Below, piece after piece: positions 12,346-59,637 of a stretch of 64,000 nucleotides of DNA. This DNA is from Acidobacteriota bacterium (GTDB lineage: Bacteria; Acidobacteriota; UBA890; WLXD01). The number at the start of each line of letters is the position of its first letter. The first letter of the stretch is position 1. The position numbers and the translations under genes were made by a program. A model generated the notes under the pieces. It did no database searches. It saw only the letters and a list, made by a program, of their open reading frames with translations, and was not told the DNA's origin. Location of the stretch: assembly GCA_965205505.1 (NCBI GenBank), contig CBDBHB010000009.1:2656001-2720000 (forward strand). Reading direction: 5' to 3'.

Positions 12346-12699
12346 ATGCGCAAGGTCGACAAGCCTTGGGGTCACGAGATCATCTGGGCCGAAACAGACT
12401 GCTACGTAGGTAAGATCCTGCACATCGACGAGGGCGAGCAGCTCAGCCTCCAGTACCACGAGGTCAAGGAGGAGACGCTCTTCTGCCAGTCGGGACGGCT
12501 CGAGCTCGAGATCGGAGAGGGTGTCGGTGGCGATCTACACGCCGTGATCCTCGAGCCCGGGCAAGTGCAGCACATCCCACCGCGTACCGTTCATCGCATG
12601 CGGGCGTTGACCACCTGCGATGTCTTCGAGGTCTCCACGCCCCATCTCGATGACGTGGTCAGGCTCGAAGATCGCTACGGACGGAAAACCGGCGACTAG
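12346..12699 (+). CDS. Cupin-domain protein (mannose-6-phosphate isomerase type II C-terminal-like)
   Basis: KPWG.E, LSLQYH..KEET, HIPP.TVHR, EVSTP.LDDVVRLEDRYGR. Confidence 0.88.
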   Translation: MRKVDKPWGHEIIWAETDCYVGKILHIDEGEQLSLQYHEVKEETLFCQSGRLELEIGEGVGGDLHAVILEPGQVQHIPPRTVHRMRALTTCDVFEVSTPHLDDVVRLEDRYGRKTGD

Positions 12700-12974
12700 T
12701 GCTCCTGATCATAAGTACGGTGACGTTTGCAGGAGCGAGATGCGGGCGAGATCAAGGAAGAGTGAGGAAGGCGATGCCGTAGCCATCCTCGAGGAGCCCT
12801 GACGCCGAGATCGCCCGCATATCGCTCCTGCCCTCCGGGTGGCCGCGGGACCGGCCACCTTGGGCGTCGCGGCGCCTCGACGATACACCCAGCATCGCCC
12901 TCGTCGCCGCTCCTACAATTCGCCCCGCTCGCGCGCGCCACAAACGTCACCGTACTTATGATCAGGAGCACTAG
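12696..12974. mobile_element. 279-bp MITE-like palindromic element, class-1 ends
   Basis: Perfect 34-bp TIR (ctagtgctcctgatcataagtacggtgacgtttg) including terminal CTAG; begins on cupin stop codon. Confidence 0.85.
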
Positions 12975-13155
12975 TGCTGCACCCCACGAATCGTGGTACG
13001 CCTGCTCTGCCGTAGGGTAGCGTCGGGACGGGACGATCCCTTTGTCGGGGCTCCTCGACGATGTACCAACATCGCCTCCGTCGCCGCTCCGCGGGACTGC
13101 CCAGTTCGCCGAGAATGACGGCCGTGAGAGCCGCCACGAGGATTGCGCCGCGCTC
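12971..13155. repeat. Diverged single-arm relative of the element family
   Basis: Starts ctagtgct sharing the CTAG of the previous element; contains core ctcctcgacgatg-N6-catcgcct; right boundary approximate. Confidence 0.55.
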
Positions 13156-13232
13156 TTTGACTATATGTGAAGCGCTGGCCGATGCTGACCCTCCACGGTG
13201 CGCTTTCGGCGTGCAGCGTGCACAATAGGGGA

Positions 13233-14552
13233 GTGAGAACTCGTCGTGGTGCGTGTTGCCTGGTGCCGGCAGTTCTGCTGGTCGTAGCCATCCCCGCTGC
13301 CGCCCAGGCTCCCGAAAGCCAACCGTTCGTTCTGGTGGCAGAGCTCGCCGACACCATCCACGCTATTACCTCGGAATACGTCGTCGAGGCGCTCGATACG
13401 GCTACCCGACGCGGCGCCGATTTGTTCCTGCTACAGATCGACACGCCGGGTGGTCTGGATCGGTCGATGCGCGACATTATCCAAGCCTTCCGAGCTAGCC
13501 CCGTGCCCGTGTGTTTGTTCGTCGGGCCGTCGGGAGCGCGCGCCGCCTCGGCCGGCTTCTTCATGGCCATGGCGGCCGACATCGTGGTGATGGCGCCGGG
13601 TACCAACATGGGTGCGGCAAGCCCAGTGCTGGTGGGCGGCGGCGCCGACGAGACGATGCAGAAGAAGATGATCCAGGACGCGGAGGCCTACATCCGCAGC
13701 CTGGCTGAAGACCGAGGACGCCCAGTCGATCTGGCCGCCGAGGCGGTTACCGACGGACGCTCCTTCGCGGCTCAGGAGGCGCTCGATGTGGGGCTCGCTG
13801 ACTTCATCGCTGACGATATCGACGCGTTGCTAGCGATCATAGACGGCAGGCGGATCAGCAAGGGCGGCGCTGACACCGTCTTGCAGCTGGATGGCGCCCA
13901 GGTCGAGACGCTCGAGCTGTCGTTGCGGCAGCGAGTCCTTGCCGTTGTGGCCGACCCACAGGTAGCCTTCATACTCATGCTGGCCGGGCTGGCAGGGTTG
14001 TATTTCGAGTTCTCCACACCCGGCGCGGTGCTGCCGGGCGTGCTCGGCGGCATCTGCCTGGTGCTGGCGCTACAAGCGTTCCAGATACTACCGATCAGCT
14101 TTGCCGGCATGTTGCTCATCGCGCTGGCACTCCTGTTCTTCATCCTCGAGGTAAAGGTAACCTCCTACGGCTTGCTGACGGTGGCGGGAGTGGTGGCATT
14201 CGTGCTCGGCTCGTTGATGCTTTTTCCTGGACCGATTCCGGAGCTACGGTTGCAACTGGGCTTCGTTCTTCCGACGGCACTCGGCGTACTGGCGATCACC
14301 GGGTCGCTCGTTTGGCTCGTAGTGCACTCGCATCGAGCGCGCGTCCAGACTGGCCCGAGGGGTCTCGTAACCAAGATCGGACACGCGACTTCGGACCTAG
14401 AACCGGGAAGCCCGGGTTCGGCATTCGTTCACGGAGAGCTATGGCGAGCCCGGTCGGACGTGCCAGTTCGCTCCGGCGACGCAGTAGAGGTCGTGGGGGT
14501 GGAGAGTGGCATGGTCCTCCGGGTACGCCCGAGCCACACACACGAAAGGTAG
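13233..14552 (+). CDS. nfeD: NfeD family membrane-bound serine protease
   Basis: Signal peptide, IDTPGG, GARAASAG, MAPGTNMGAA, TM helices, C-terminal VHGELWRA OB-fold; followed by SPFH gene. Confidence 0.92.
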   Translation: MRTRRGACCLVPAVLLVVAIPAAAQAPESQPFVLVAELADTIHAITSEYVVEALDTATRRGADLFLLQIDTPGGLDRSMRDIIQAFRASPVPVCLFVGPSGARAASAGFFMAMAADIVVMAPGTNMGAASPVLVGGGADETMQKKMIQDAEAYIRSLAEDRGRPVDLAAEAVTDGRSFAAQEALDVGLADFIADDIDALLAIIDGRRISKGGADTVLQLDGAQVETLELSLRQRVLAVVADPQVAFILMLAGLAGLYFEFSTPGAVLPGVLGGICLVLALQAFQILPISFAGMLLIALALLFFILEVKVTSYGLLTVAGVVAFVLGSLMLFPGPIPELRLQLGFVLPTALGVLAITGSLVWLVVHSHRARVQTGPRGLVTKIGHATSDLEPGSPGSAFVHGELWRARSDVPVRSGDAVEVVGVESGMVLRVRPSHTHER

Positions 14553-14559
14553 CTGACCG

Positions 14560-15354
14560 ATGGGACTACTTTCGCCCGTAACGTTCTTGTTCGTCCTGCT
14601 CGCTTTTTACCTGATCAGCTCGGTGAACATCCTCAAGGAGTACGAGCGCGCCGTTATCTTTCGGCTCGGCAGGTTGCTGCCGGAAACCAAGGGGCCGGGC
14701 ATCATATTCGTCTTCTGGCCGATTGACAAAATGGAGCGCGTGTCGCTGCGCACGATCGTTCTCGACGTGCCTCCGCAGGACGTGATCACGCGCGACAACG
14801 TCTCGGTGAAGGTAAACGCGGTGGTGTATTTCCGCGTCATGGATTCCACCCGTGCCGTGGTCGAGGTTGAGAACTATATGTACGCCACCTCGCAGCTGGC
14901 GCAGACGACGTTGCGCTCGGTGCTCGGCCAGGTCGAGCTCGACTCGCTGCTATCGGAGCGTGAGAGCCTCAACTCACAGTTGCAGTCGATCCTCGACGAC
15001 CATACTGACGCGTGGGGAATCAAGGTGTCGATGGTGGAGGTGAAACACGTCGACCTGCCGCAGGAGATGATTCGCGCCATCGCCCGCCAGGCCGAGGCGG
15101 AGCGCGAGAAGCGAGCCAAGATCATCCACGCGGAAGGGGAGGCGCAGGCGTCGGAGCGTTTGTACGCGGCAGCGAAAGTTCTGGCGCAGGAGCCCGTTGC
15201 CGTACAGCTGCGTTACTTCCAGACGTTGACCGAGGTGGCGTCCGATCGCAGTTCGACCATCGTATTCCCGCTTCCCATGGACATGATGATACGCGGACTG
15301 AGCGGTGCTGGCGGTGTGGCCAGGGCGGGCAGCAGCGATGGTGCCGACGACTGA
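14560..15354 (+). CDS. SPFH/stomatin-like (slipin) protein
   Basis: [48 protein letters not shown]. Confidence 0.94.
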
Positions 15355-15484
15355 GTAGTTTGGGCTCGGGTGGTGAGGACCCGCGTAGGAAGAGAATCGT
15401 TTCTTGATGCGATAGACTTTGCTGGATATTGATCACGCTAGCGCGCCGCTGTGACGGCGTGGGTCCTGCGTGCGGGGTGGGAAG

Positions 15485-16087
15485 ATGAACGGATCGGGCA
15501 AGCAGAGTTTCTACGAGATCCAACTAAGCAACAGCAGCCTGATCGTGGCCTTTCTGGTGGCGGTTGGCTTGGGCGTTGCCGTGTTCATGCTCGGGGTCAT
15601 GGTGGGGCGCGATCAGGGACCACAGCCGTTGCTTGAAGGTGGCTTGGTCGAGGCGCTCGGTGACGAGACTGGCCCCGCGCCGGCGGTCGATCCGGCTGAT
15701 ACGGATTTCCTCGGACGCATGGAAGAGTCGGCGGAAGAGACGACCGCCAACCTCGGCACAGCGGCAGCGGAGCCGGTCGCTGCAACGCGGCCGGCCGAGG
15801 CGTCGCCGTCGGCCGCTACAAACGATCTGCCGGTGGCGGACCCCTCGATCGCCAGCGGCTATGTGGTGCAGGTCAAGGCCACGAGCGATCGCGACGAGGC
15901 TGACACGCTTCAGGCAAGCCTCGCATCAGCGGGGTTTCCGGCGTTCATCGTGTCCGGCGATGTCGCCGGGACGATGATGTTCCGCGTACGCGTCGGGCGC
16001 TACCGTGAGGAATCGGCTGCCGAGCGCGTCGCGGCTGCGCTCAGCGGCCGTCGCGACATCGTCGACACCTGGATCACCCAGGGCTAG
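15485..16087 (+). CDS. SPOR-domain membrane protein (FtsN/DedD-like)
   Basis: N-terminal TM helix, low-complexity linker, YVVQV...FRVRVGRY SPOR motif. Confidence 0.85.
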   Translation: MNGSGKQSFYEIQLSNSSLIVAFLVAVGLGVAVFMLGVMVGRDQGPQPLLEGGLVEALGDETGPAPAVDPADTDFLGRMEESAEETTANLGTAAAEPVAATRPAEASPSAATNDLPVADPSIASGYVVQVKATSDRDEADTLQASLASAGFPAFIVSGDVAGTMMFRVRVGRYREESAAERVAAALSGRRDIVDTWITQG

Positions 16088-16362
16088 TGTCCTGTAACAG
16101 AGGTTCGTTGCATATTGTGGCGCGCGCGACTGAGTCGAAACCAAGGAGGCTCGACGACAGCGATGCTGAGCGTATCGCAGAGGAGGGCCGACGCCGGAGG
16201 CGGCCAGTCCCGCGGCCACCCGGAGGGCTGGGTCGATATGGGGACAATCTCAGCGTTGCGATTTGTCGACGATGGGCACTGCATCGCCATCCTCATCGCG
16301 CCTTGAGCTTGCCCCCATCTCGCCGTAACCAGACCCACCACACTTTCACCACGGCCTGCTAG
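16084..16362. mobile_element. 279-bp MITE-like element with mismatched ends (class-2 left, class-3 right)
   Basis: CTAG at both ends; left tgtcctgtaacag..., right ...cccaccacactttcaccacggcctg; interior colinear with reverse complement of 12696-12974. Confidence 0.85.
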
Positions 16363-16371
16363 AGGGAACAC

Positions 16372-17913
16372 CTGTCGCGCTCTGGTTGGACGGCGCTTGT
16401 CAGCGGCCTCGCTCTGGCCGCGGCGTTCCCCAAGGTCGGGTGGGCTCCGCTCGCGTGGGTGGCGGTTGCGCCGCTGCTCATCGCTGTGACCGACATCTCA
16501 CCAGTGCGTGCGTGGTGGTACGGGTTCCTCTTCGGGGCGGCGTTTCGCGCCGCGACGCTGTACTGGGTGGTCTACGCGATGACGCGCTTCGGCGGCTTGT
16601 CGCTGCCGATCGCCGCCTTGGGCGCGGGTCTGTTGGTTGCCTATCTGGCCGCCTACTGGGGCCTGTTTGCACTGGTGGCGAACCGCGCCGGGATCGAGCG
16701 CCCCGAGGCGGTGCTGCTGCTGGCGGCAACGTGGACTGGTCTGGAGTACATACAATCGGTCTTGCTGAGCGGGTTCCCCTGGGCGTTACTGGGGTATGCG
16801 GGGTCCGCCTACCTGCCGGTAGCCCAGGTCGCTGACCTCGCCGGCGTATACGGGCTGTCGTTCCTAGTGATATTGGGAAACGGAGCCTTTGCGGCGGCCG
16901 CCCGCAGCAGGCCCGGCTGGCGCGCGACGGCGCTGCCTGCGGTCGTCATGCTGGCCGCCAGCATCCTCTATGGCTATGGGCGACTGTCTACAGGACCGGC
17001 GACGGACGTTGGCACGACCGTGCCAGTGGCCCTGGTACAGGGCAACGTGGCGCAGGACAGCAAGTGGGACCCGGGCCTCAGGGAGCGCACGCTGGAGCGC
17101 CATTTGCTGCTGTCTGAGCGTGGCGCTCGGAGCGGCGCCCGGTTGGTGGTGTGGCCCGAGAGCAGCTGGCCCGATCCCTACGGTGTCGAGCGCGACCCGC
17201 AGGCATCGAGGCTCTTGACGGCCGTGGCGCGGCGCACCGGAGCCGCACTAGTTGTTGGCACGGTGCACGTAGCCGACGGCGACGCCGGGTACACGGTTGC
17301 TAACGCCGCCGTAGTGGTGGACGCCGATGGCGATTGGGCCGGCCGGTACGAGAAATCGCACCTTGTCCCGTTCGGCGAGTACCTGCCTCTACAACGCTAC
17401 CTACGGTTCCTGGGGCCACTCGTGCAGTCCGTGGGCGCGATGAGGGCGGGCGATTCGTCGCAGCCGCTCCTGTCAGCGCCGGCTGCCGGGGTGCCGCCTT
17501 TCGGCCTGGCGATTTGCTACGAGATCATTTTTCCGAGCTTGGTGAGTCGGCAAGTGCGGGCCGGCGCGCAGTTCCTGATAACCATTACCAACGACGCCTG
17601 GTACGGCACCACCAGCGGCCCCTATCAGCATTTCGACATGGCTCGCCTACGCGCCATCGAGAACCGGCGCTGGTTGCTACGCGCCGCGAACACCGGCATC
17701 AGCGGTGTCGTCGACCCCTGGGGCCGCGTCTTGGAGCGCACGGAGATGGAAACGGAGGCTGTCGTCGTGAGCGAAGTGAGGGCTCGTCACGATCTGACTC
17801 CGTACGTGCGGATCGGCGACGCGTTTGCGCTCGCCTGTGCCCTGCTGGCGGCGGCGTGCGTCGCGGGCGCCGTTTGGCCGCGCCTCGGATGGATGTATCG
17901 GCCTGCGGCGTGA
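16372..17913 (+). CDS. lnt: Apolipoprotein N-acyltransferase
   Basis: GFPW, VQGN, WPES, YEKSHLVPFGEY, ICYE, TNDAW, RAANTGIS. Typical Lnt N-terminus (SGLALAAAFP) lies upstream of 16459; CTG start at 16372 is tentative. Confidence 0.93.
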   Translation: MSRSGWTALVSGLALAAAFPKVGWAPLAWVAVAPLLIAVTDISPVRAWWYGFLFGAAFRAATLYWVVYAMTRFGGLSLPIAALGAGLLVAYLAAYWGLFALVANRAGIERPEAVLLLAATWTGLEYIQSVLLSGFPWALLGYAGSAYLPVAQVADLAGVYGLSFLVILGNGAFAAAARSRPGWRATALPAVVMLAASILYGYGRLSTGPATDVGTTVPVALVQGNVAQDSKWDPGLRERTLERHLLLSERGARSGARLVVWPESSWPDPYGVERDPQASRLLTAVARRTGAALVVGTVHVADGDAGYTVANAAVVVDADGDWAGRYEKSHLVPFGEYLPLQRYLRFLGPLVQSVGAMRAGDSSQPLLSAPAAGVPPFGLAICYEIIFPSLVSRQVRAGAQFLITITNDAWYGTTSGPYQHFDMARLRAIENRRWLLRAANTGISGVVDPWGRVLERTEMETEAVVVSEVRARHDLTPYVRIGDAFALACALLAAACVAGAVWPRLGWMYRPAA

Positions 17914-17980
17914 TGGCCACGCCGCCGTCGGATTCACGGTACATTCGCCGGTGCGGATCGGTTTTCCAAGGGACACGAGC

Positions 17981-19094
17981 ATGATCGAAGAACCCCGTCG
18001 CGCTCTCGATGAGTTGCGCTCGCGATACCAGGCCCTTGGAGGTCATCTTTGACCCTGCTGGGACTCGAGATCGACTGAGCCAGATCGAGAAGCTGATGGT
18101 CGCGCCGGCGTTCTGGGATGACGGGGGCGACCAGAATCTGGTGCGTGAGCGCAGCGAGCTGCAGGCGCGCATTGACCTCGATGCTTCTCTGAGCGAGAAA
18201 GTCGATGAGGCAGAGGCGTTCCTCGAGCTTGCCGACGAGGGTGAGGAGGAGGCCGTAGGCGAGGCCGAGGCGGCGCTCGCCGAGCTGCGCAAACGCCTCG
18301 ACGCCTACGAGGTGCAGTTGCTCTTGGGCGATCCGGACGACGTGCGTCCGGCGCTCATCGATATCCACCCGGGAGCCGGGGGAACCGAGTCGCAAGATTG
18401 GGCCGCCATGCTGCTGCGCATGCTGCAGCGTTGGGCGGAGGCCGGCGGCTACAAAGTCGAGATGATCGATGAGCAGCCCGGTGAAGAAGCCGGTCTGAAG
18501 AGCGCAACGCTACGCATCGAGGGGCCCTACGCGTTCGGATACCTCAAAGGAGAAACTGGTGTGCACCGTCTGGTGCGGATATCGCCGTACGATGCTGCGA
18601 GCCGGCGGCACACTTCGTTCGCCTCGGTTGCCGTTGCTCCGGAGATCGACGATGACATCGAGATCGAGCTCGACGACAAGGACCTTCGCGTGGATACCTA
18701 TCGTGCCAGTGGAGCGGGCGGTCAGCATGTCAACGTGACCGACTCGGCCGTTCGCGTTACCCATGTACCGACCGGAATCGTCGCCCAGAGCCAGGCGGAG
18801 CGCTCGCAGCACCGCAACAAGGCGACGGCGCTGAAGGTCTTGCGGGCGCGCCTGTACGAGCGCGAGCGTCAGCTACGCGAGGCGGAGATCGCCGAGAAAC
18901 AGGGCGAGAAGATGGAGATCGGCTTCGGGTCGCAGATCCGCTCCTATGTGTTGCACCCCTATCAAATGGCCAAGGACCACCGCACCGACGTCGAGAAGGG
19001 CAATGTGGATGCGGTTCTCGATGGCGACCTACAGCCGTTCATGGACGGCTTCCTGAAATGGCGCGCCGGGGCGGGCAGCGATACCGACTCGTAG
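17981..19094 (+). CDS. prfB: Peptide chain release factor 2 (programmed +1 frameshift)
   Basis: ATG 17981 frame ends CTT-TGA-C; +1 frame has GAGGTESQDWA, ISPYD, GAGGQ, GSQIRSY. Confidence 0.96.
18038..18053 (+). promoter_or_regulatory. prfB frameshift cassette
   Basis: Internal SD GGAGGT, then CAT CTT TGA C. Confidence 0.92.
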
Positions 19095-19110
19095 GAGAGG
19101 CCCTGGTCAG

Positions 19111-21549: not shown

Positions 21550-21656
21550 CTACCGGGATGGTAGCATGGGGTCGACTGGTCCCGTCGGGTGGGCGCGCTG
21601 CGACACGCTGTGCAAGAAGATGCTTGACGGGCAGGTCGGGGGATTGTTTCATTACG

Positions 21657-21683
21657 TTAGCACTCGAATCGAGAGAGTGCTAA
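21657..21683 (+). promoter_or_regulatory. CIRCE element (HrcA operator)
   Basis: Perfect TTAGCACTC-N9-GAGTGCTAA upstream of hrcA. Confidence 0.96.
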
Positions 21684-21760
21684 GCCCCATCGTGCGGCTC
21701 GCGACAAGGGTACGCATATGTTGAGTTCCATTCTTCCAACCCGGGCGTAGGGCGCTTGGC

Positions 21761-22804: not shown

Positions 22805-22846
22805 CTTCAGCCGCGTTCGTCCGTGCCGCGGCTGCGAGGACTACGA

Positions 22847-23440: not shown

Positions 23441-23442
23441 GC

Positions 23443-29905: not shown

Positions 29906-30184
29906 CTAGCAGACCGTGGTGAAAGTGTGGTGGATCTGGCGACAGGGTCTTGCGAAGTGCAGGCAAGGAGAGAGGAGGAGGCGATGGTTACGCCATCGTT
30001 GACGAGGAACGACGCAGCGTACGCGCGCAACCCCCTGTCGCCCGAAGGGTTACGGCGATTTGGGGCCAACTGCGGCGTTGGCCTTCCTCGACGATGGCTA
30101 GGGCATCGCCTGTGTCAGGCCGCCTTGCATCTGGCCCCAACTCGCCGTAACCAGACCCACCACACTTCCACTACGGCCTGCTAG
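29906..30184. mobile_element. 279-bp MITE-like element, class-3 ends
   Basis: Imperfect 34-bp TIR ctagcagaccgtggtgaaagtgtggtggatctgg; near-identical to 59359-59637; right CTAG holds the stop of the next gene. Confidence 0.88.
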
Positions 30185-30745: not shown

Positions 30746-30770
30746 CTAGCAGGCCGTGGTGGAAGTGTGG
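30746..30770. repeat. Isolated class-3 terminal fragment
   Basis: ctagcaggccgtggtggaagtgtgg. Confidence 0.75.
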
Positions 30771-33163: not shown

Positions 33164-33366
33164 CCGCTCAGTCGCCGGAGCCGCTCCGCCATCGCTCGCC
33201 TCTTACCCGCACCCGGGCCCCGAACTCGACGGTAAGGGCTCCGTCTCGGTCCGTGCGGTACACCGCCGTGCGATGTGCTCTCAGTCGTGTTGACCTGACC
33301 CCACGGTTAGTACCACGTCTTATCTCAGTAACTCGGTGCTTGACCCCACCCCGAAATCAGTACCAG

Positions 33367-45786: not shown

Positions 45787-46232
45787 GCCGCACACGCGAC
45801 TACGTGACCCATAGCGCCGAGGAGACCGAGCATGTCGGCGCCGGTCTCGGTCGCCGGCTTCGCGGTGGCGAGGTGATCCTGATCTTTGGCCCGCTCGGCG
45901 CCGGTAAGACGCAGCTGGTGCGCGGCATCGCGGCCGGGCTAGGGCTCGATCCCGGCCAGGTGTCGAGCCCGTCGTACGCGCTCATCAACGAGTACACCGG
46001 ACGGCGAACGCTCTACCATGTAGATCTATACCGGCTGAGTACAGCCGACCTCCCAGACTTGGGTCTAGAGGACCTCTACGGTCGGGGGTGCGTGGTGGTG
46101 ATCGAGTGGGCCGAGCGTCTAGAGGAGGCTGGATGGGATCTGGGCTCGTCGATCATCGTCGAGGTCGATCATCACCCTGACCGCTCCGACGTGCGCATTA
46201 TCGGCGTCGACGAAGCGGTCTCGGGCGGCTAG
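45783..46232 (+). CDS. tsaE: tRNA t6A biosynthesis ATPase
   Basis: GPLGAGKT, VSSPSY, HVDLYRL, IEW. Confidence 0.94.
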   Translation: MSRTRDYVTHSAEETEHVGAGLGRRLRGGEVILIFGPLGAGKTQLVRGIAAGLGLDPGQVSSPSYALINEYTGRRTLYHVDLYRLSTADLPDLGLEDLYGRGCVVVIEWAERLEEAGWDLGSSIIVEVDHHPDRSDVRIIGVDEAVSGG

Positions 46233-46334
46233 ATGAGATGAGATGAGAAGGCCAACCTCCTGAACGCAGTAGCCTGACGGCTCTGCAAACGTTTCTTCAA
46301 ACGTAACGGGCTCGAAGCCCAAGGAGGTTGGCCG

Positions 46335-47377
46335 ATGAGGAGTGTAACGATTGGACTGGACGTAAGCGACCGGTACAGCCGTATGTGCGTGCTCGACAGT
46401 AAGGGCAGGGTGATGGAGGAAGGGCGGGTGAGGACGAGCCCGGAGGGGCTGGCGAGGCGGTTCGGGTGCGAGGAGCCCGCTCGAGTAGTGCTGGAGGTTG
46501 GAACGCACTCGCCGTGGATGAGTGAGCAGTTGAAGCAACTGGGTCATGAGGTGCTGGTGGCTAACCCGAGGCGGCTGAAGCTGATCTATGGCGAGCACGG
46601 ACCGACCGGTTGGATGCCGAGCACCTGGCACGAGTGGGCAGAATGGACCCAAAGCTGCTTAAGACGGTGCAGCATCGAGGCAGACAAGCGCGAGCGGATC
46701 TAGCCGTGATTCGGAGCCGAGATGCTCTGGTAAAGAGCTGCACGCAGTTGGTGAGCCATGTGCGTGGTGCGGTCAAGTCGGCCGGTTGTCGTATTCCCAG
46801 GTGCTCGACGCCGGCGTTCGCGCGCACCGCGCCAGAGCACATACCGGAGCGGCTCAAGGGAGCGCTCGAGCCGGTGCTTGAAACGATCGCCATGCTGACG
46901 GGCAACATCCAGCAATACGAGCGTCAGATCGTGCAGCTGTGCCAGGGGCGATACCCGGAGACACAGCAGCTCCAGCAAGTGGCCGGGGTCGGAGCTCTGA
47001 CCGCACTGGCGTATGTGCTGACGCTCGAGGAGCCGGAGCGGTTCAATACCTCCAGAGCCGTGGGCCCGTACCTGGGACTGAGACCGAAGAAACGGCAGTC
47101 GGGGGACAAGGACCCTGCGCTACGAATAACCAAGGCGGGCGACAAAATGCTCCGACGCCTGTTGGTGGGCTCGGCGCATTACATCCTGGGCCCCTTCGGG
47201 CCCGATACTGAGCTCAGACGCTGGGGGCTCAAGCTGGCCGGACGCGGTGGTCCTCATGGCAACAAAAAGGCAGCAGTTGCTGTCGCCCGTAAGCTCGCCG
47301 TTGTGCTGCACCGACTGTGGCTGAGTGGAGACGAGTACGAACCGTTGCGCGCACCTGTAGAGGTTTCAGCAGCATGA
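46335..47377 (+). pseudogene. IS110 DEDD transposase, frameshifted at ~46598
   Basis: IGLDV and LE motifs in frame 1; TDRLDA, GVG...A, YLGL.P...QSG and AVARKL in second frame. Confidence 0.88.
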
Positions 47378-47379
47378 AC

Positions 47380-47610
47380 TAACCCGCAACCAGGAGGTCG
47401 GTAGGGCGACGCGACCCAACGGTTATCGATCTGACCGCCCGGTCCGGGCGACTGCGAAGGTCACTACGAGCTTCGAGCTCGGCAGCTAGATTGCAGCGCC
47501 TCGAATCGGGACGGACCCCAGAATGCACCGGACGACCTGAATCCTCGTCCACCAGAGTGCGAATAGGAGCATGGCGTGCAGATCGATTCTTCGCTGGGCA
47601 CCACATTGCC
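47380..47610 (+). ncRNA. Putative IS1111 bridge/seek RNA
   Basis: Stem ctgcga...ttgcag encloses ggtcacta, hairpin gagct-tcg-agctc and ggcagctag, which match the two halves of the flanking target; boundaries approximate. Confidence 0.65.
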
Positions 47611-47637
47611 CTTGACCGAACTAGGCCTTCTCATAGA

Positions 47638-47772
47638 AGTGGCCTGTAACAGATGGATATCGGCGTTGCGCCTCGTCGATGATGCCTATTGCATCGCCTT
47701 CCTCGCCGCGCCTTGATCTCACCCGCAAATCCCTTCTGCGATATGCGACGATCATCTGTTACAGGCCACTAG
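47638..47772. repeat. Internally deleted class-2 element whose left CTAG was split by IS1111
   Basis: agtggcctgtaacagatg / catctgttacaggccactag IR; one core arm; followed by a duplicate aggccactag. Confidence 0.85.
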
Positions 47773-47849
47773 AGGCCACTAGGCTGGGCTGTCGAGGTCT
47801 CTCTTGTGAGCTTCGTCGCGAGCATGTCGCGCCCCAGCTGCAGCGCCTC

Positions 47850-49496: not shown

Positions 49497-49681
49497 CTCG
49501 TCGGCTCGGGAGGCTAGCGAGTGGGTCGGGCATTGACGCCAGCCCCACTGCTGGGGCTCTACGACAGCGGCCTCATGCGAAGATGGGCATCAGTTCGCCG
49601 CCCGGCGGCTGACGATACCCGCAAGCCTTGACGATTACCAGCAGGGGAAGTGATGCGACGCCGCATTGTTACGCACCCGTC

Positions 49682-50644: not shown

Positions 50645-50660
50645 CCTCGGTGTCCGCGAG

Positions 50661-50690
50661 CCACGGCCTGCTAGCAGGGTGGAGGTGTGG
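50661..50690. repeat. Back-to-back class-3 end remnants around one CTAG
   Basis: ccacggcctgctagcagggtggaggtgtgg between convergent genes. Confidence 0.6.
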
Positions 50691-50705
50691 CGGCTGTGCG
50701 ACGGA

Positions 50706-51839: not shown

Positions 51840-51912
51840 GGGGGCTCTCCGGCGTGGCTTACGTGGCTCGCCGCGATCGCAGCGACGACGCGCAGCATAC
51901 CGCGGCGCGTTC

Positions 51913-51970
51913 TTGACGGTGGTGGGCCACGATGCTAGTTTTTTAGCATCATGCTAAAGAAACAACACAT
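51913..51970 (+). promoter_or_regulatory. Promoter and palindromic operator for BlaI-family gene
   Basis: TTGACG-N17-TAGTTT; palindrome gatgcta-N6-tagcatc (51931-51950) overlaps the -10, with a weaker second site directly after. Confidence 0.7.
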
Positions 51971-52018
51971 GGATCAGCAGGGCGCCCGAACGCGGGGCGC
52001 TGCGACCAGCGAGCTGCC

Positions 52019-52414
52019 ATGAGCGATCAGATTCATCGCGACCTGAGCCGACGAGAGCGCCAGATCATGGACATCCTTTACGAACACGGCGCCTCGAGCG
52101 CTGCCGATGTTCGCGGTCTGATGCCCGCCCCGCCTAGTTACTCGGCCGTTCGCGCCATGCTGCGGGTGTTGGAAGACAAGGGTCATATCGGACACCAACA
52201 AGATGGACCACGTTATGTTTATCGGCCGCTGGTGGCTCGCGAGGAAGCGCGACGCAGCGCCTTACAGCATCTGGTACGGACGTTCTTCGATGGCTCGCGC
52301 GAGGCCGTTGTTGCAGCGCTGCTGAGCGAGGGCAGCGGCGACCTCGACGAGCAGGATCTCGACCGGCTCTCGAAGCTGGTCGAGCTGGCGCGCCACCAGG
52401 AAGCGCAGTCATGA
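52019..52414 (+). CDS. BlaI/MecI/CopY family transcriptional repressor
   Basis: LSRRERQIMDILY, YSAVRAML..LE.KG, Y.Y.P, FFDGS. Confidence 0.92.
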   Translation: MSDQIHRDLSRRERQIMDILYEHGASSAADVRGLMPAPPSYSAVRAMLRVLEDKGHIGHQQDGPRYVYRPLVAREEARRSALQHLVRTFFDGSREAVVAALLSEGSGDLDEQDLDRLSKLVELARHQEAQS

Positions 52415-52613
52415 GCGGCCTGCTGGGGCGGGCCACGGCCGCCTGGTCGACGCGCTCGCCGACGAGGGCACGGAGGTGCGCCGTCAGGCCGCCTGGGCTC
52501 TGGAAATGATCGAGTCGGACGAGGCGTTGGAGGCCCTGCTCGACGCCATGAAGGACACGGATCGCGACGTACAGCGGCAGGCGATGCGGGCGATCGCCCG
52601 GATTACCGGGTAG
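52411..52613 (+). pseudogene. Remnant of a BlaI partner gene (start plus C-terminal HEAT repeats)
   Basis: ATG overlaps BlaI stop; out-of-frame segment LVDALADEGTEVRRQAAWAL...DVQRQAMRAIARITG ends TAG 52613. Confidence 0.6.
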
Positions 52614-52721
52614 GGGACGAGGTCGGCCCTGCCTCGTTTGGCGACGCCGTACCCAGACCCATCAGAGTCCTTCAGCACCCTGCTATAAGCTAGCGGCGCC
52701 CGCTGACCAACCGGAGTCGCC

Positions 52722-53971
52722 GTGCCGGCTGAGCCGCTGATCACCAACGACGCCGTAGTGCGTAGGCATCTTGCTTGTGATGCTGGCGTTTGTTTTCACC
52801 ACGTCACACAGCGGATCACGGTTTTGGCAGCGCTTCTACTCGGTCGTGCCGACGGTCCTCGTTTGCTACTTCCTGCCGTCGCTGTTCAGCACTCTGGGCA
52901 TCATTTCCGGCGAGGTCTCCAACCTCTACTTTGTCTCCTCGCGCTACCTGCTGCCCACCAGCCTCGTCTTACTGACCCTCAGCGTCGACGTGCGCGGCAT
53001 CGTCCGTCTCGGACCCAAGGCGCTGATCATGTTCTTCGCGGGTACGGTCGGCATCGTGCTCGGCGGCCCGCTGGCGATCCTGGTGGTGGGCGCGATCGAG
53101 CCAAGTATCGTCGGTGGTGCAGGACCGGATGCCGTGTGGCGTGGGCTTACCACTGTGGCGGGGAGCTGGATCGGCGGCGGCGCGAACCAGGCCGCGATGA
53201 AAGAGGTGTTCGAGGTAGGCGACGATCTGTTCTCCGCGATGATCGCGGTCGACGTGATCGTCGCCAACGTCTGGCTGGCGGTATTGCTCTTCATGGTCGG
53301 GCGTGCCTCCCGCATCGACGCCTTCATCGGCGCCGACACGTCGGCCATCGATGAGCTTCGTGCACGAGTGGAGCGCCAACAACGCGAGCACGCCCGCATC
53401 CCCAGCCTCACCGACCTGATACAGATCTTGGCTGCGGGCTTCGGGGTAACCGCCGTGGCCCATTTCTTCGCCGATCAAATATCTTCCGCGATCGAACGGG
53501 CGGCGCCGAGCTTGGCAATCTACAACCTTACGTCACAGTTCTTTTGGCTTGTCGTGCTGTCAACGGTGATCGCCATCGGGCTCTCTACGACGAAGCTACG
53601 GCGGCTCGAGCATGCCGGCGCGTCGAAAATCGGCTCGGCGTGTCTGTACGTGCTGATTGCGTCGATCGGCATGCGCATGAACCTGATGGCAGTCTTCGAT
53701 AACCCCGGACTGTTCGTGGTCGGCAGCGTGTGGATGGCCATACACGCCGGCATCATGCTCGGGGTGGCCTGGTTGATTCGTGCGCCGGTGTTCTTCATGG
53801 CCGTGGGCAGCCAAGCGAACGTCGGCGGCGCGGCGTCGGCACCGATTGTGGCCTCGGCGGTGCATCCTGCGTTGGGCCCCGGTAGGCGCCCTGCTGGCGG
53901 TGCTTGGTTATGCCGTGGGCACGTACGGTGCATATATCTGCGGTCAGATCATGCGCCTGGCGGCGGGCTGA
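52722..53971 (+). pseudogene. DUF819-type membrane protein with two frameshifts (~52762, ~53875)
   Basis: PLITNDAVV start frame, SWIGGGAN, SQANVGG.ASAP, final frame PVGALLAVLGYAVGTY. Confidence 0.78.
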
Positions 53972-53974
53972 CGG

Positions 53975-55684
53975 TCAATCCGGCAGCGTTTCTCCGGGAC
54001 GCCATCCGGCCGCGTCGAGCTTCTGCAACATGCCCAGCACCTCCGCGCGCTGGGCGTGAAGCAGCAGCATGAGCAGATCACCCGGCCGCCCCCAGCGTAG
54101 CGCCGACTGCACCGCCTCGACCTCCGAGGCTGCCACCTCAATGCGATCCGATGGCGTACCGAGCTCCAGCAGACGCTGCTGGAGTCGCTCGACCACTTCA
54201 CCCTCGGCACGGCCGCGCAGGTAGCCCGGCATTTGCTTTAGAACGATGCGCTCCGGACGCGTGCGCCAGGTGACCTCGGCAAGTCGGTCGATCGAGAAAT
54301 TGTCACGATCCCCGGCCTGCCCGAGGATTACCAGGCGGCGCTTGACGGGCATCGCGGCCCCCATCTGCAGAACCAACTCCAAGCCCTCCGGATTGTGGGC
54401 GAAATCGGCATACGCCTTCAAGCCGCCGAACTCGAAGTAGTTGCCACGGCCCGGGTTCTGCTCAGCGTCGCTACGGAACTCCTTCAGGCCAGCGTCGATG
54501 GCGCTGGTGCTGAGGCCGACGGAGTCGGCGATCGCCGCAGCTGCGAGTGCGTTGTAGACGTTGTGACGTGCTGCGCCGCCGAGGGTGGCTGGCGCTGCGA
54601 TGGTCTCGAGCAGCGCTACGAAGCGACCGCCCTGCAACCGGCCGAGCACCCCATTCCGTTGGACGTACGCTACTGCGGAGCGTGTCGCCGCGCCCACCGG
54701 CGGCACCTCGGCGTCGAGCGTCAGCCAGGTGACCGGCACCCCGGCCGAGGCCGCGTGGCGTCGCAGGAGCGGATCGTCCGCGTTCAGAAGCAGTACCCCG
54801 TCCGGGCTGGCGGCTCGGGCCACTAGCAGCTTGACGTGCGCCAGAGCGTCCAGATCGATTACCCCGTATTCGCCCAGATGGTCGGTGCCGACGTTGCTAA
54901 CATATGCGACGTCTGCCCGCCCGAGAGGTAGTCCGCGGCGTAGAAGGCCGCCGCGCGCCGTCTCGATCAATGCCAGATCGACCCGCGTGTCGCGTAGCAG
55001 GGTTCGGGCACCCTCGCCGCCTGTGTAGTCGCCGCTGAGCATTGTCGTTCCGTCGATCTGCACACCGTCGGTCGACGTGTTGCCGCAGTGAATACCGGCT
55101 GCGGCAGCAATCGCGGCCAGCATCCGAACCGTCGTCGTTTTTCCGTTCGTTCCGGTGACCAGGGCCACCGGCACATCGTGCGCCTAGCCCCAGGTCACCG
55201 AATCGGGGGCCGGCAGGCGGTCTACCGGCCATGCCAGGGAGCCCGACCCGAGCCCGACCGAAGCGATCTCGTCGTCGCAAAGGAATGCGAGGCTATGCTC
55301 AGCCGCCGCCGCGGCCAGCGACAGCAGCGCCGGGTTGGCTTCGGCGTCGACCAGTTCCTGAAGCTGCGGCAGGCCATGGCTTGCCGGCGGTTCCGCGCCA
55401 AACGATGCTACCGCCGTCGCCCAGGCAGCCTCGTTGATCTCGCAGGCGGCGTAGAGTCCGTCGATGGGCGCGCTGATCGCCAAGCTGGCGCCTCGGTCGT
55501 AGCGGCGTAGGGCGGTTCGCTCTTTGCCCCACCCAACCGCGGCGAGGAGTCGCTGCGCCTGTCGACGCCAATCGTCAACGAGCTCTTCAGCGCAGTCTTC
55601 CGGAAGCTCCACCTCGATGACCGCCCCGGCTTCGTCCTGGACCAGGCTTGGCCCCGTGAGGCGGCGCGAATCGACCAGCCGCAT
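53975..55684 (-). pseudogene. CphA-related Mur-ligase-domain protein, with in-frame TAG at 55184-55186
   Basis: ORFs 55184-55684 and 53975-55174 are in frame (VTWG*AHDVPVALVTGTNGKTT); ETARGGLLRRG, NPGR, DFAHN, GDR. Confidence 0.78.
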
Positions 55685-55687
55685 GCT

Positions 55688-58479
55688 TCAGTCTGCCTCT
55701 TCGACCTCGCGTGCCAGCCGCACGCCGCGTTCGTCCCGGATGAGCCGTTCGTCACCGGTGAGCAAGCTCACGGGCACCTCCGGAAGATCAATCGGTACGG
55801 CTACCGGAGCGGTCGACGACTCGGACGCATCGGAAGGCTCGAAGTGGATGATCTGGTTCCAGCAACGGGACAAGTTGTCGGCGAAGACGAGCAGGAGATC
55901 GCCGGGGGCGGCGCTACGCAGGGCCGCATCGATGGATTCGACCTCATCAGGAATCACGCGTATGGCTTCGTCAGCGACTCCGGCCGATTTCAGCGTGTTG
56001 GCGAGTAGCTCGGGATCTCCTCGGGGCCACGTCCGCGTAGCCGATCGTCGCGCTTGCAGACGAACTCGTCGAAATGGGGCGCGGCGATCTGCGCGATTCG
56101 GCGGATGTCTTCGTCGCGACGATCCCCGGGTGCTGCCAGCACGCAGATTGCCTTGCCGTCGCGATCGAGGCGGCTCACCAGATCGCAGATGGCGCGCATC
56201 GCAGCCGGGTTGTGCCCGTAGTCGAGGATCACCTTGAACGGGTGCTCGTCGAAGATATTCATGCGCCCGGGAGCCTGGAAGAAGGTCGTATCGAACGTCT
56301 TCAAACCCTGCCTGATGTTGTCGATGCCGACGTGCAGGCAGTGGGCCAGCGCTGCCGCGAACATGGCGTTCTGCACGTTGTGCATCGCACGTCCGTTGAG
56401 GGTCGCGGGGATCAAGTAGGTCCACAACAGCGGGACGTGGGTCCCGCCATCGTAGAGCGCGATCATGTGCCCGTTCATGCCCTCTTCGAGCACTACGGTC
56501 TGGCCGCCGGCACGAATGTGCTCCTTAACCAGGGTGTGCTCGCGGCTCATAGTGACGTAGCAGATCTGCTCGGCTTCCGTGTAATCCGCCATCCGCAGAC
56601 AGTGGGGGTCGTCGGCATTCAACACCGCAGCGACTGCCGCTACCTCGATCGGGATTCGCTTGACCTCGGCCAGTTGCTCCAGGGTATCGATGCCACGCAT
56701 GCCGAGGTGGTCTTCCTCCACATTCAAGCAACACGCCACATCGCAGCGGCGATACCCCATGCCGGCGCGCAGTAGTCCACCGCGAGCCGTCTCGAGCACT
56801 GCCACGTCGATGGCAGGATCACGCAGCACCATGCGTGCCGCCATCGGTCCGGTCATGTCGCCCTTCACGCTGAGCTGGCCGTCGATGTATACGCCATCGG
56901 TCGACGTCAGCCCGACGCGGCTTCCGGATAACTTGAGGATATGCGCGAGCATGCGCGCCGTGGTGGTCTTGCCGTTGGTCCCGGTGATCGCCGCGATCGG
57001 CACACGGCTCGCGCTGCCCGCCGGAAACAACATGTCGATCACCGCGCCGGCGACGTCGCGTGGCTTACCCTCGCTGGGAGAAACGTGCATTCGAAAGCCG
57101 GGGGCCGCGTTGATCTCACAGATAGCCCCGCCAGACTCCTTGTACGACTTCGAGATGTCGTCGGTGAGGAAGTCAACGCCGGCCACGTCCAGACCGATGG
57201 CGCCGGCGGCACGCACCGCCATCTCGCGGTTGTCCGGATGCACGATATCGGTAACGTCGATCGCCGTGCCGCCGGTCGACAGGTTGGCCGTTGCACAGAG
57301 GTAGACGATCTCGTCGCCAGGCGGCACGCTCGTTCGGCGGTAGTTGCTCTGTGCCAGCAGGCGGTCAGACTGGTGGCTGAACTCGATGCGGGTCAAGACC
57401 TTCTCGTGACCGATACCTCTTCGCGAGTCTTCGTTTACCTTGTCGACGAGTTCCTCGATGGTGTGGACACCGTCACCGACTACGTGCGCGGGCATGCGCT
57501 TGGCGGCGGCCACCAGTTCCCCGTTGACCACTGCCAGGCGATGGTCGAGGCCGCTGATGAAACTCTCGACCAGCACGCTACGACTGTGCTGTTGTGCTTG
57601 TTCGACCGCGGCGGCCACCTGTCCGGCATCGCTCAAGTCGATCGAAACGCCTCGCCCATGGTTGGCGTTGTAGGGCTTCACGACTACCGGGTAGCCGATG
57701 TGCTCTGCGGCGCGCACGGCGGACTTCGATGAGCGCACCAGGTGCTGTTTCGGCACCGGCAAGCCGAGGCCCGAGAGGATCTTGTGGGTCTCTTCCTTGT
57801 CGGACGAGATCTCGACCGCGATGTGGCGGGTCTCGCTTGTGATGGTCGCCTGGATGCGCTTCTGGTGTCGTCCAAAACCGAACTGCACGAGGCTCTGGGT
57901 GTTGAGCCGGATCCAGGGAATGTCGCGTTCCTCCGCCGCCCGCACCAACGCGGCCGTGCTGGGCCCCAGGGCGCGCCTTTGCGCCCAGCGGATCAGCTGA
58001 TCGCGCTCCTCGGCGAAGTCGAAGTCGACGGGGACAGCACCCGGGGGCTGTAGCTCTTCGGGCAGCAAGCTGTGCAGCAGGGTGAGCGTCAGATCTCCCG
58101 CCGCGCGTCCGACGTCTTCTTGCTCGTACTGGTACACGACGCCGTAGACGCCGGGCTCGTTGTCGACGGCGCGGGTACGCCCGAAGGTCACGCGGCTGCC
58201 GGCGATGTTCTGGACCTCGAGGGCGCAATGCTCGAATATGTGGCCCATCCAAGTACCTTCGTCCTCGCGGAGCCGCCGCTCGAAGCCCCCGGCCTGGCGA
58301 TAGGAGCAGCCGTGGTCGGCGAGGCCGGGCAGGGCGCCGAGCAGCGCGTCGATGAACCCTTCCCCGAGCCGAGCGGTGGGCCATTGCTCGAGAGTGCCCA
58401 GATCGACCGTCATCTGGATCACCGGAAAGTGGGCGTAGAGGCTCGGACCCAGATAGACGCGCGAATCGAGGATTTTCAT
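55688..58479 (-). CDS. cphA: Cyanophycin synthetase (apparent frameshift at ~56013)
   Basis: HGCS...GGF..RL..EGTWMGH..EH, LGPST, ATP-grasp, EINAAPGFRMH, TGTNGKTT, ETARGG, DYGHN; C-terminus continues in the 55688 frame. Confidence 0.92.
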
Positions 58480-59309
58480 CGGCTCTGTGTCTCCCTTGGC
58501 GGAAGCGGGCTTCGAGTCTGTATGTCGTACGTGCAGCCGTGCAACAGGATGTGCAGGCGTAGACCGAGCAGGCAGACCGGATCGCCGGCTCGCTCTCCCA
58601 CCGATGAGTGCTCGAGATCGGAGCCGTCGACCAGAGTGCACGATCCGGTACCAACGATCTCCATGGTCCGGTCCGGCGCGATGAAGGCGGCGGTGTTCTC
58701 GTCGAGTCCCATGCCGACGATGGAGGGGTTGTAAGCCAGTACGGTTAGCAAGCGACCGAGTCGGTCGCGCTCGCGGAAGTGTTGATCGATGGTGAAGTCG
58801 CGGGTGAGGCCGATTCCCGGAGCGAACGCCACCATGTGGGTGCGGGGTGAGGCGCCCTTCTCACCGAAAGCGATCATGTGCTCGGAAAGATAGCTCGCGC
58901 CCGCCGAGGTGCCGGCGATGTGGACGCCGCGGTTCGATGCTGATGTCAACGCGCGAGCTACTGGTGTCCCACCGAGCGTTCGACTCAATCGTAGCTGCGA
59001 GCCGCCGGTGAGAAAGATGCCTGTTGCCTCGGCGATGACGCGTAGCCAATCGGCGCGGTTGCAGTCGGCGCGATCGGCGAACGGCAGCGAGGTAGCGTTA
59101 GCGGCGCCGATCTCGGTAAAGACCCGCTCGTACCGCGGCCCCGTCGTGCGCATCTTGGATGCCGTCGGCACCACGACGATACGCGCGTCGCGCCCGCCGC
59201 ACAGCTCTACGAAGCGACTCAGGATTAACGGGTCTCGTGCCTTCTTCTCGGCGCCGCCGATCGGGATCAGATAGCCGCCTGTCGGCTCTTCGGACGAAGT
59301 GCTCAGCAT
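58476..59309 (-). CDS. cphB: Cyanophycinase
   Basis: IGGAE.K, FLTGG.Q, GTSAG, IDQHF..R.R.GRL, GLDENTA; ATGA overlap with cphA. Confidence 0.92.
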   Translation of the reverse strand: MLSTSSEEPTGGYLIPIGGAEKKARDPLILSRFVELCGGRDARIVVVPTASKMRTTGPRYERVFTEIGAANATSLPFADRADCNRADWLRVIAEATGIFLTGGSQLRLSRTLGGTPVARALTSASNRGVHIAGTSAGASYLSEHMIAFGEKGASPRTHMVAFAPGIGLTRDFTIDQHFRERDRLGRLLTVLAYNPSIVGMGLDENTAAFIAPDRTMEIVGTGSCTLVDGSDLEHSSVGERAGDPVCLLGLRLHILLHGCTYDIQTRSPLPPRETQSR

Positions 59310-59358
59310 GGCGCGAGATTCTGCCACGCCCTGCCGAGGCTGTAGAGTCGACTCGCCG

Positions 59359-59637
59359 CTAGCATGCCGTGGTGAAAGTGTGGTGGGTCTGGCGACAGGG
59401 TCTTGCGAAGTGGAGGCAAGGAGAGAGGAGGAGGCGATGGTTACCCCATCGTTGACAAGGAACGACGCAGCATACGCGCGCAACCCCCTGTTGCCCGAAG
59501 GGTTACGGCGATTTGGGGCCATCTGCGGCGTTGGCCTTCCTCGACGATGGCTAGGGCATCGCCAGTGTCAGGCCGCCTTGCATCTGGCCCCAACTCGCCG
59601 TAACCAGACCCACCACACTTTCACCACGGCCTGCTGG
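59359..59637. mobile_element. 279-bp MITE-like element, class-3 ends
   Basis: 34-bp TIR with 2 mismatches; near-identical to 29906-30184; right terminus CTGG. Confidence 0.88.

Follow-up and report, generated by a model that had tools for sequence, protein, structure and literature searches.

A family of 279-bp repeats inserted at CTAG in an Acidobacteriota genome combines a conserved two-hairpin inside with ends resembling those of different insertion-sequence families

The 279-bp repeats in the window, that is, the whole 64,000-nucleotide stretch of an Acidobacteriota genome analysed here, very probably form a MITE superfamily built on one conserved chassis (end, hairpin, CCC-N3-GGG, hairpin, end), with end modules that belong to different insertion sequence (IS) families. 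Read from the sequence, the element consists of a 34-nt inverted end, a 101-nt arm, a 9-nt linker (CCC-N3-GGG), a second 101-nt arm and a 34-nt inverted end. Each arm is a stem of ~20 bp enclosing the core GGCGT-N9-TCGACGATG-N7-CATCGCC..CCTTG, the orientation of which is opposite in the two arms, so that each core reads outward to the nearer end. The four 279-bp copies reported in an earlier sequence-only reading were all recovered where it had placed them, but the family in the window has further members, including one-arm and truncated copies:

12696..12974: full-length class B MITE, 279 bp, perfect 34-nt inverted ends; hairpins at 12730-12830 (minus) and 12840-12940 (plus)
16084..16362: unit-length hybrid MITE, 279 bp, left end class C (IS630-type), right end class A (IS1182-like-type); hairpins at 16118-16218 (minus) and 16228-16328 (plus)
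29906..30184: full-length class A MITE, subfamily A1, 279 bp; hairpins at 29940-30040 (minus) and 30050-30150 (plus)
59359..59637: full-length class A MITE, subfamily A1, 279 bp; CTGG at the right terminus
11671..11858: one-arm class B derivative, 188 bp, hairpin at 11723-11823; its terminal CTAG is common with a class C end starting at 11855
9771..9903 (plus): half element, single hairpin and degenerate class C end
12971..13114 (plus): class E end and single hairpin; abuts the class B copy at 12696, with the CTAG in common
47639..47772 (minus): class C1 MITE with an internal deletion, single hairpin; terminal CTAG split by an IS110-family IS
30746..30769 (plus): solo class A end
3694 (minus, class A), 33086 (plus, class A) and 42756 (minus, class C): other solo ends
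46229..47638 (minus): IS110-family IS, ~1.41 kb, inside the terminal CTAG of a class C end; not a member of the MITE family

Against an expectation of 0.21, the window contains the core motif 12 times, a count reached in 0 of 100 shuffles, and 12 hairpins were found there by the covariance model and 17 element ends by the end-motif scan. As is usual for MITEs, the elements are short, non-coding and bounded by terminal inverted repeats, and the variable length of the loop of the core helix (6 to 9 nt) argues against a conserved open reading frame. Two readings of the arm as a conventional signal were discarded: (i) a mini-ORF on the inward strand (AGGAGG-N-ATG), since one arm stops after two codons and the loop length varies, and (ii) an outward promoter with the TTGNNN of CCTTG as its -35 box, as no consistent -10 box was seen by eye across the arm types. 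The copy at 16084 had been taken to represent a third symmetric end class and proved instead to be a hybrid of classes C and A, with the breakpoint within the 3' stem of the right arm; nor are all four copies bounded by CTAG, the one at 59359 ending in CTGG. The end classes are of really different kinds, as had been proposed, but classes B, C and D have the tip CTAGTG..CCTG in common.

When copies were collected genome-wide, 96 dispersed full-length elements were found (A/A, 50; C/C, 21; B/B, 16; D/D, 3; hybrids, 6), 44 copies belonging to subfamily A1, together with 348 hairpin matches (nhmmer) and 646 end motifs, the family covering 54,928 bp in 329 intervals, or 0.92% of the genome. A length of 278 or 279 bp was found for 58 of the 97 CTAG-bounded inverted-repeat pairs. 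Copies also lie back to back, with 18 end pairs that have a single CTAG in common, two of them in the window. The claim that the family shows the opposite of the classical MITE pattern holds between classes but not within a class, where the ends are conserved and the inside is variable, as usual. A distant blastn search with an A1 copy against a plasmid collection gave no match.

The ends were compared with those of insertion sequences in this and related genomes, which gave partners for classes A, C and D but none for class B. Class D ends are identical at 21 of 24 positions to an 1185-bp IS of this genome, the 381-aa ORF of which scores 272.9 bits on NCBIfam IS630 (cut-off, 100), and class C ends match a 1205-bp IS630 IS of G007, from a sister genus, at 27 of 33 positions (counted by eye). 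Class A ends match a 1505-bp IS of G011, a genome of the same order, at 21 of 21 and 20 of 21 positions; its 472-aa ORF contains DUF772 and has its best match to NCBIfam IS1182 (158.6 bits, short of the cut-off of 270). In G011, class A-type end pairs occur four times at 1505-bp spacing and at least 12 times at 281-bp spacing (reversed-pattern control, 0), placing 281-bp two-hairpin MITEs beside the 1505-bp IS1182/IS5-like IS. Judged by sequence likeness, then, classes C and D are IS630-family ends, and class A ends are IS1182/IS5-like. No class B partner was found in 26 order-level genomes, and this genome yielded neither a class A partner (DUF772, 0; DDE_Tnp_1_6, 0) nor a class C partner, its only other IS630 IS (1143 bp) having different ends. 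Several of the genomes examined hold MITEs without a partner IS.

Three further candidates for partners in this genome were rejected: class A or class B end pairs at gene-sized spacing flank ordinary genes (such as PRK, TonB_C, amidase and RDD), the single DDE_Tnp_1 IS has unrelated ends, and an apparent class E "IS" proved to be a duplicated stretch of a gene into which an IS3-family IS has inserted. The sequence-only reading had the elements recognized by length and shape; since classes A, C and D have ends matching those of ordinary DDE insertion sequences, it is simpler to assume that the sequence of the ends is recognized. A physical constraint on length is nevertheless possible, because the modules vary in length by no more than ~1 nt from class to class and from phylum to phylum.

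The elements insert at CTAG, often at the TAG stop of a gene, and CTAG is restored at both junctions. Insertion polymorphism at a defined target site, another property of MITEs, was found for three of the window copies by comparison with orthologous sites in sister genomes, where the element is missing and one CTAG or CTGG is present: (i) the site of the 16084 copy is empty in all four same-genus genomes, with a single CTAG that is also a likely TAG stop codon; (ii) the 29906 copy is absent from the orthologous place in all four congeners, three of which have a single CTAG; and (iii) the 59359 copy is missing from G004, where the site reads CTGG, and from G002, while G003 has an independent insertion ~11 bp away. 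In the contigs of four runs, the assemblies break at the repeat; the 29906 copy abuts its flanks in them, and no empty-site joint was seen. These comparisons support the earlier proposal that the elements are non-autonomous and mobile, and, as it also stated, no mobilizer lies in the window. Tenzen and Ohtsubo reportedly located IS630 insertion at the TA within CTAG in 1991. TA duplication is discussed in PMC2170065. Among 40 non-canonical end pairs, with the classes pooled, 31 keep AG/CT as inner dinucleotides, 11 fit a TA duplication and none fits a 4-bp direct repeat. Empty sites with one CTAG are compatible with TA duplication, 4-bp duplication or central insertion.

The stems were said to differ in sequence and yet stay paired, and this is borne out by strong compensatory variation. 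In 49 hairpins, 88.4% of the cells are paired against 62.6% in shuffles, and 314 cells show double changes against 100 in shuffles (matched by 0 of 500), figures from an alignment fitted to the model, and for inverted repeats, which may stay complementary by DNA-level correction without selection; slid controls gave 25 to 43% paired. Pairing is maintained by double changes at 24 of 27 pairs, and one-sided changes are far fewer. The 13 arm types have stems that are unlike at most positions and a core that is nearly invariant, a contrast that recurs between phyla, the apical ~60 nt being nearly invariant in the repeats of Acidobacteriota and of other phyla alike. Subfamily A1 has a per-site divergence of 0.033 for the ends, 0.028 for the stems and 0.040 for the core region, i.e., copies decay evenly after insertion. 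A search of the window against Rfam 15 at the gathering score gave no match, and with E values up to 1, seven loci from several phyla gave only chance-level matches to miRNA, snoRNA and PtaRNA1 (an antitoxin RNA).

The hairpin is present in 37 of 151 sampled Acidobacteriota genomes (including the unpublished G076) and is multicopy outside the phylum, with at least 54 copies in one Thalassospiraceae MAG of the Alphaproteobacteria, at least 21 in one Myxococcota MAG and at least 17 in one Phycisphaerae MAG. In the Thalassospiraceae and Myxococcota MAGs, the core lies between other, non-CTAG ends. Of five out-of-phylum genomes searched for DDE_3, only the Phycisphaerae MAG gave matches, as fragments at contig ends. 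The literature consulted, including a bioRxiv census of MITEs, gave no description of this family. The hairpin is an uncatalogued structured motif and can be expected to recur in repeat annotation and RNA-family searches of soil metagenome genomes.

One conserved inside could have come to carry ends of several kinds as follows. IS630-type and IS1182-like elements would both land on CTAG, and every inserted element would supply new CTAGs at its ends, so that elements should accumulate end to end. A homologous deletion joining equivalent positions in two abutting copies could then give unit-length hybrids, and by such deletions the chassis would exchange its ends.

MITEs are usually regarded as deletion derivatives of one IS, with the inside counted as junk; in this family, it is the inside that is conserved, and the ends can be exchanged, which speaks for a cis function open to use by any DDE transposase or especially well tolerated by the host. 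Since neither IS type contains the hairpin, conservation of the core does not come from binding one transposase, and the same core on ends of unrelated transposases, together with even decay, suggests a constraint that does not depend on the transposase and is felt by propagating lineages rather than by each inserted copy. Our guess, offered with rather less than even confidence, is that the core may act in cis as a structural module: a very short, stiff element would have its two ends brought together when a hairpin or cruciform forms or a host factor binds. On a wider reading, also held at less than even confidence, the two-hairpin module could be a self-standing "universal MITE chassis", a DNA or RNA device selected for transposase-independent service (such as end synapsis on a stiff, short element, host-factor recruitment or neutralizing read-through) that would make any acquired end pair a successful MITE, and that would have reached at least six phyla through exchange of its ends between unrelated transposase families with a common target site. 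If a role for the core were found, it could account for the rise of some MITE families to hundreds of copies and for the survival of non-autonomous elements beyond their transposases.

The conservation of the core can also be explained by other lines of reasoning. One that we hold to be possible, with perhaps a modest share of the probability, is that the core acts as RNA, as a 3'-UTR stabilizer, a terminator or insulator, or a protein-binding motif just inside the end. Read-through from either flank would meet the hairpin in the same orientation, and the inverted arms would make the function independent of the orientation of the element. In keeping with this, just over half of the full-length copies (50 of 96) lie against the TAG that closes an open frame of 100 codons or more, compared with 39% of other CTAGs; the conserved internal loops are rich in purines on the strand that reads inward; a conserved A.C in the apical helix (40 of 49 sequences) reads G.U on that strand; and of the mismatches tallied over 31 hairpin families, 34 read G.U on the inward strand and 17 the other way round (binomial p = 0.024). 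That bias, however, is absent from recent copies (52 G.T versus 36 A.C), G.U pairs are rare (24 of 1250 cells on the outward strand or 56 on the inward strand), and the scarcity of one-sided changes, the lack of an Rfam match and the lack of extra conservation of the core after insertion tell against an RNA as well, as does the orientation of one-arm copies toward genes, which is unbiased in a small sample (8 versus 6).

It is unlikely that the core has no function, the subfamilies being simply young relatives or the middle being homogenized by gene conversion. Even decay, the ability of mobile elements to spread between phyla and the hybrids, which show that copies recombine, are all in line with this idea, but it accounts poorly for 13 arm types with divergent stems around a near-invariant core, for the same contrast between phyla and for the pairing preserved by double changes. 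We regard it as improbable that the hairpin serves the element's own transposase as an internal binding site or enhancer. Some Tc1/mariner elements do carry inner transposase-binding repeats, a precedent for such a site; here, however, the same core lies between IS630-type and between IS1182/IS5-like ends and also between the non-CTAG ends, while the insertion sequences themselves are without it: the hairpin was found in none of 11 loci around IS1182-like and IS630-type (DDE_3) transposase matches, and hairpins near IS630 copies lie only within abutting MITEs. Movement as a single-strand element by an HUH (Y1) enzyme reading hairpin shape, as for REP/RAYT or IS200/IS605-derived palindromic elements, would suit hairpins variable in sequence and conserved in shape, but this suggestion of the sequence-only reading is close to refuted by the absence of any Y1_Tnp (PF01797) match in the 96% complete genome, the long inverted ends that match DDE insertion sequences, and insertion at a palindromic CTAG with clean empty sites.

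The MITE superfamily favored here resembles several known repeats in part. RUP of Streptococcus pneumoniae is a MITE attributed to IS630-Spn1, and, like such IS630/Tc1-mariner MITEs, our elements are short, non-coding and high-copy with IS630-type ends; this fits only classes C and D, whereas class A does not match IS630, and the 279-bp length, the two long hairpins and an inside that is not IS-derived and also occurs with IS1182-like ends set them apart. With IS5/IS1182-derived MITEs they have in common that class A ends equal those of the DUF772/IS1182-like IS beside the G011 MITEs, but the inside is no deletion derivative of that IS and is common to the IS630-type MITEs. Correia elements of Neisseria show TA duplication and contain a host-factor (IHF) site. 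Our elements are like Correia (CREE/NEMIS), ERIC and REP/BIME repeats in being intergenic, with a functional-looking inner motif and hairpin folding in transcripts; no sequence likeness to them is known, and none of them is known to pair one cargo with the ends of two IS families or to span phyla.

The ends of the MITEs are themselves targets of insertion. IS1111/IS110 elements of the IS4321/IS5075 type insert into transposon inverted repeats, their target being the Tn21-family end, whereas the IS110-family IS of this genome targets a MITE end, with ~30 copies located inside the terminal CTAG of a class C end.

Sequence inspection placed all four window copies of the element where the sequence-only reading had put them, each 279 bp long and named here by its start position:

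12696: class B copy
16084: hybrid copy
29906: third copy in window order
59359: copy with one terminus reading CTGG

The same reading had taken 16084 to represent a symmetric third class of ends, which it does not, and had assigned CTAG to both ends of every copy, which fails at 59359. In each copy, a 9-nt CCC-N3-GGG linker separates two 101-nt arms and a 34-nt inverted end bounds the element on either side, with module lengths constant to about 1 nt between classes. Within every arm, a stem of roughly 20 bp encloses some 60 nt that carry the motif GGCGT-N9-TCGACGATG-N7-CATCGCC..CCTTG, in opposite orientation in the two arms of one element. The window contains 12 occurrences of this core motif (0.21 expected), a number reached in 0 of 100 shuffles, and the folding of whole elements far exceeds that of shuffled sequences (z = -9.3 for RNA folding, -12.8 for DNA folding).

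The host genome (G000; 5.98 Mb, 64% G+C, 9 contigs) contains 97 CTAG-bounded inverted-repeat pairs of 80-700 bp, 50 of them 279 bp and 8 of them 278 bp long. End motifs were sorted into five classes (genome-wide counts: A, 344; C, 161; B, 77; D, 49; E, 15), and the 96 full-length elements, defined as 270-290 bp, comprise 50 A/A, 21 C/C, 16 B/B, 3 D/D and 6 hybrids, the 16084 copy being one of the latter. Their 192 arms fall into 13 sequence types, giving subfamilies by arm content A1 (44), B (16), C1 (15), C2 (6), A2 (6) and D (3). Truncated, one-arm and end-to-end mini forms are also numerous; an HMM detected 348 hairpins genome-wide, and matches to the consensus take up 0.92% of the sequence (54,928 bp). 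CTAG-bounded mini-palindromes consisting of two element tips alone (e.g., 25 bp in class D and 33 bp in class A) occur throughout the genome and may have arisen by extreme internal deletion or been left behind on excision; examples are at these positions:

G000, contig C9:563140: mini-palindrome
G000, contig C9:1628712: mini-palindrome
G000, contig C8:412141: mini-palindrome

A 619-bp segment delimited by a class E end is duplicated (contig C2:11439-12057 and contig C9:2171144-2171762), and the IS3-family IS described below is inserted in the C9 copy.

The 14 arms aligned end to end from G000 yielded 27 pairs in RNAalifold, 19 of them with compensatory changes. The arms were used to build a model, R1, which was run on 37 of the 66 loci that a public pattern scan had yielded; the 29 others were mainly more copies from two metagenome-assembled genomes (MAGs). 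R1 gave full-length matches in 31 of the 37 loci, and the remaining six are chance pattern hits in coding DNA. In an alignment of 49 hairpins, which is model-fitted and thus biased toward the structure, 88.4% of cells are paired against 62.6% in shuffles, so the stem covariation proposed from the sequence alone is borne out. Double changes occur at 24 of the 27 pairs and account for 314 cells versus 100 in shuffles, a value equalled in 0 of 500 shuffles, while a control with slid partners gave 25-43% pairing. Two short inner helices beside the conserved core covary as well, and the hairpin matches no Rfam family.

A search for transposase or HUH genes matching each end class found DDE-type ISs for classes A, C and D; class B had no partner IS among 26 order-level genomes, and G000 contains no Y1/HUH transposase. 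The class D end is identical at 21 of its first 24 positions to that of a 1185-bp IS with two copies in G000, whose 381-aa ORF contains DDE_3 and HTH domains and reaches 272.9 bits against NCBIfam IS630 (cut-off, 100). The class C end agrees at 27 of 33 positions, counted by eye, with the end of a 1205-bp IS630-family IS in G007, a genome of a sister genus, and the transposases of these two ISs are 64% identical. For class A, G000 has no matches to DUF772 or DDE_Tnp_1_6, and the ends of its sole DDE_Tnp_1 IS are unrelated. Class A ends do bound a 1505-bp IS of G011, a genome of the same order (21 of 21 and 20 of 21 positions). The 472-aa ORF of this IS carries DUF772, and its best NCBIfam match is IS1182, whose cut-off of 270 it does not reach (158.6 bits; IS5, 79.7). 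G011 has 77 class A-type ends versus 0 with the reversed control; four pairs lie at 1505-bp spacing and at least 12 at 281 bp, each of the latter around two hairpins. A further IS end type, CTAGCAGGCTGCGGAAAAAC, belonging to a second IS1182-like match, is similar to the termini of an element with two hairpins from another Acidobacteriota record (L018). Thus, the end classes differ because they belong to distinct IS families, and CTAG is used by both. G007 (5.1 Mb, same family; loci L094-L121, L139 and L146) has at least 146 matches to an IS1182-like transposase domain and 42 to IS630-type transposases, and several of its IS630 copies adjoin class-A-like MITEs via a common CTAG.

The hairpin cargo is not derived from the ISs: the covariance model detected no hairpin at 11 loci surrounding IS1182-like and IS630-type (DDE_3) transposase matches, and near IS630 copies the hairpins were confined to MITEs adjoining the IS at a common CTAG.

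Some arm types are paired with more than one end class, and unit-length hybrids make up 6 of the 96 full-length copies. Elements stand back to back on one common CTAG in 18 pairs genome-wide, with these in the window:

11855/11858: back-to-back pair on a common CTAG
12971/12974: back-to-back pair on a common CTAG

Hybrids could arise by deletion between equivalent positions of two adjoining copies, which would leave the original CTAGs still flanking the product. The breakpoint of the 16084 hybrid lies within a stretch common to both arm types, and from its sequence this copy looks like the product expected of such a deletion.

Orthologous-site comparison agreed with the earlier proposal of a mobile element. 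The 16084 copy is absent from 4 of 4 same-genus genomes, which have one CTAG (...CAGGGCTAG|AGGG) that apparently serves the upstream gene as its stop codon; the 29906 copy is likewise absent from 4 of 4, with a lone CTAG in 3. The 59359 copy (loci compared: L158 and L157) is absent from the congeners G004, where the site reads CTGG, and G002, and the congener G003 has a separate insertion in the same spacer about 11 bp away. At the 12696 site, filled here by a class B copy, G004 carries another element fragment, one bearing a class A end (L082), and the site is a landing place used repeatedly. Of the 96 full-length copies, 50 adjoin the TAG of an open frame of 100 codons or more, versus 39% of the other 4894 CTAGs. 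Three modes of insertion can be compared on the 40 non-canonical end pairs (classes pooled): (i) a 4-bp direct repeat is seen in 0 of 40; (ii) a TA duplication is compatible with 11 of 40; and (iii) AG and CT are kept as inner dinucleotides in 31, as for insertion at CT^AG. The end-pair counts fit insertion at CT^AG better than either alternative. The filled CTAG...CTGG site of 59359 and its empty CTGG counterpart in G004 are consistent with this mode, in which the element would have entered between CT and GG with no target duplication.

Whether the hairpin acts as DNA or RNA was approached through its mismatches. Read outward, from the centre toward the nearer end, 1250 cells contain 24 G.T and 56 A.C, G.U-type cells thus being scarce. 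With each of the 31 families counted a single time, the outward figures are 17 G.T versus 34 A.C (P = 0.024), and therefore the inward-reading strand, from flank into element, would be the one that tolerates G.U better; in the apical helix, 40 of 49 sequences have a conserved A.C, which is a G.U on that strand. On the other hand, strand bias is absent from mutations of recent copies (52 versus 36), and one-arm copies show no bias in orientation to genes (8 versus 6).

Within A1 (44 copies), per-site divergence is similar in ends (0.033), stems (0.028) and the core region (0.040), and inserted copies therefore decay evenly. When arm types or phyla are compared, most stem positions differ and the core is near-unchanged; taken together, these patterns indicate that constraint on the core acts on lineages still propagating. 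Binding by a single transposase cannot be the source of this constraint, because the core travels with the ends of unrelated transposases.

Of 151 sampled Acidobacteriota genomes, 37 contain the hairpin, among them the unpublished G076; by genus, the count is 28 of 105. It is multicopy outside the phylum in one MAG each of Thalassospiraceae (at least 54), Myxococcota (at least 21) and Phycisphaerae (at least 17), with one copy each in Leucobacter soli and a Microbacterium MAG. The Thalassospiraceae elements retain two arms, the CCC-N3-GGG linker and a similar length, with different, non-CTAG ends; the Myxococcota copies have one arm and yet another set of ends. A literature search found no published description of this MITE family.

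Two further ISs were noted in the window:

46229-47638, minus strand: IS110-family IS of about 1.41 kb (also L013), with DEDD_Tnp_IS110 and Transposase_20 domains
33291-33344: solo-end fragment of a 1260-bp IS3-family IS

The IS110-family IS has 28 near-full and 2 partial further copies in the genome (98-100% identity); in the copies inspected, a class C MITE end tip forms the left flank and the IS lies within the terminal CTAG, and it seems to target MITE ends. The IS3-family IS, with an rve-type ORF and an apparent frameshift, is present as near-identical copies at contig C9:297780-299041 and about 25 other places, and its short solo ends are dispersed in the genome.
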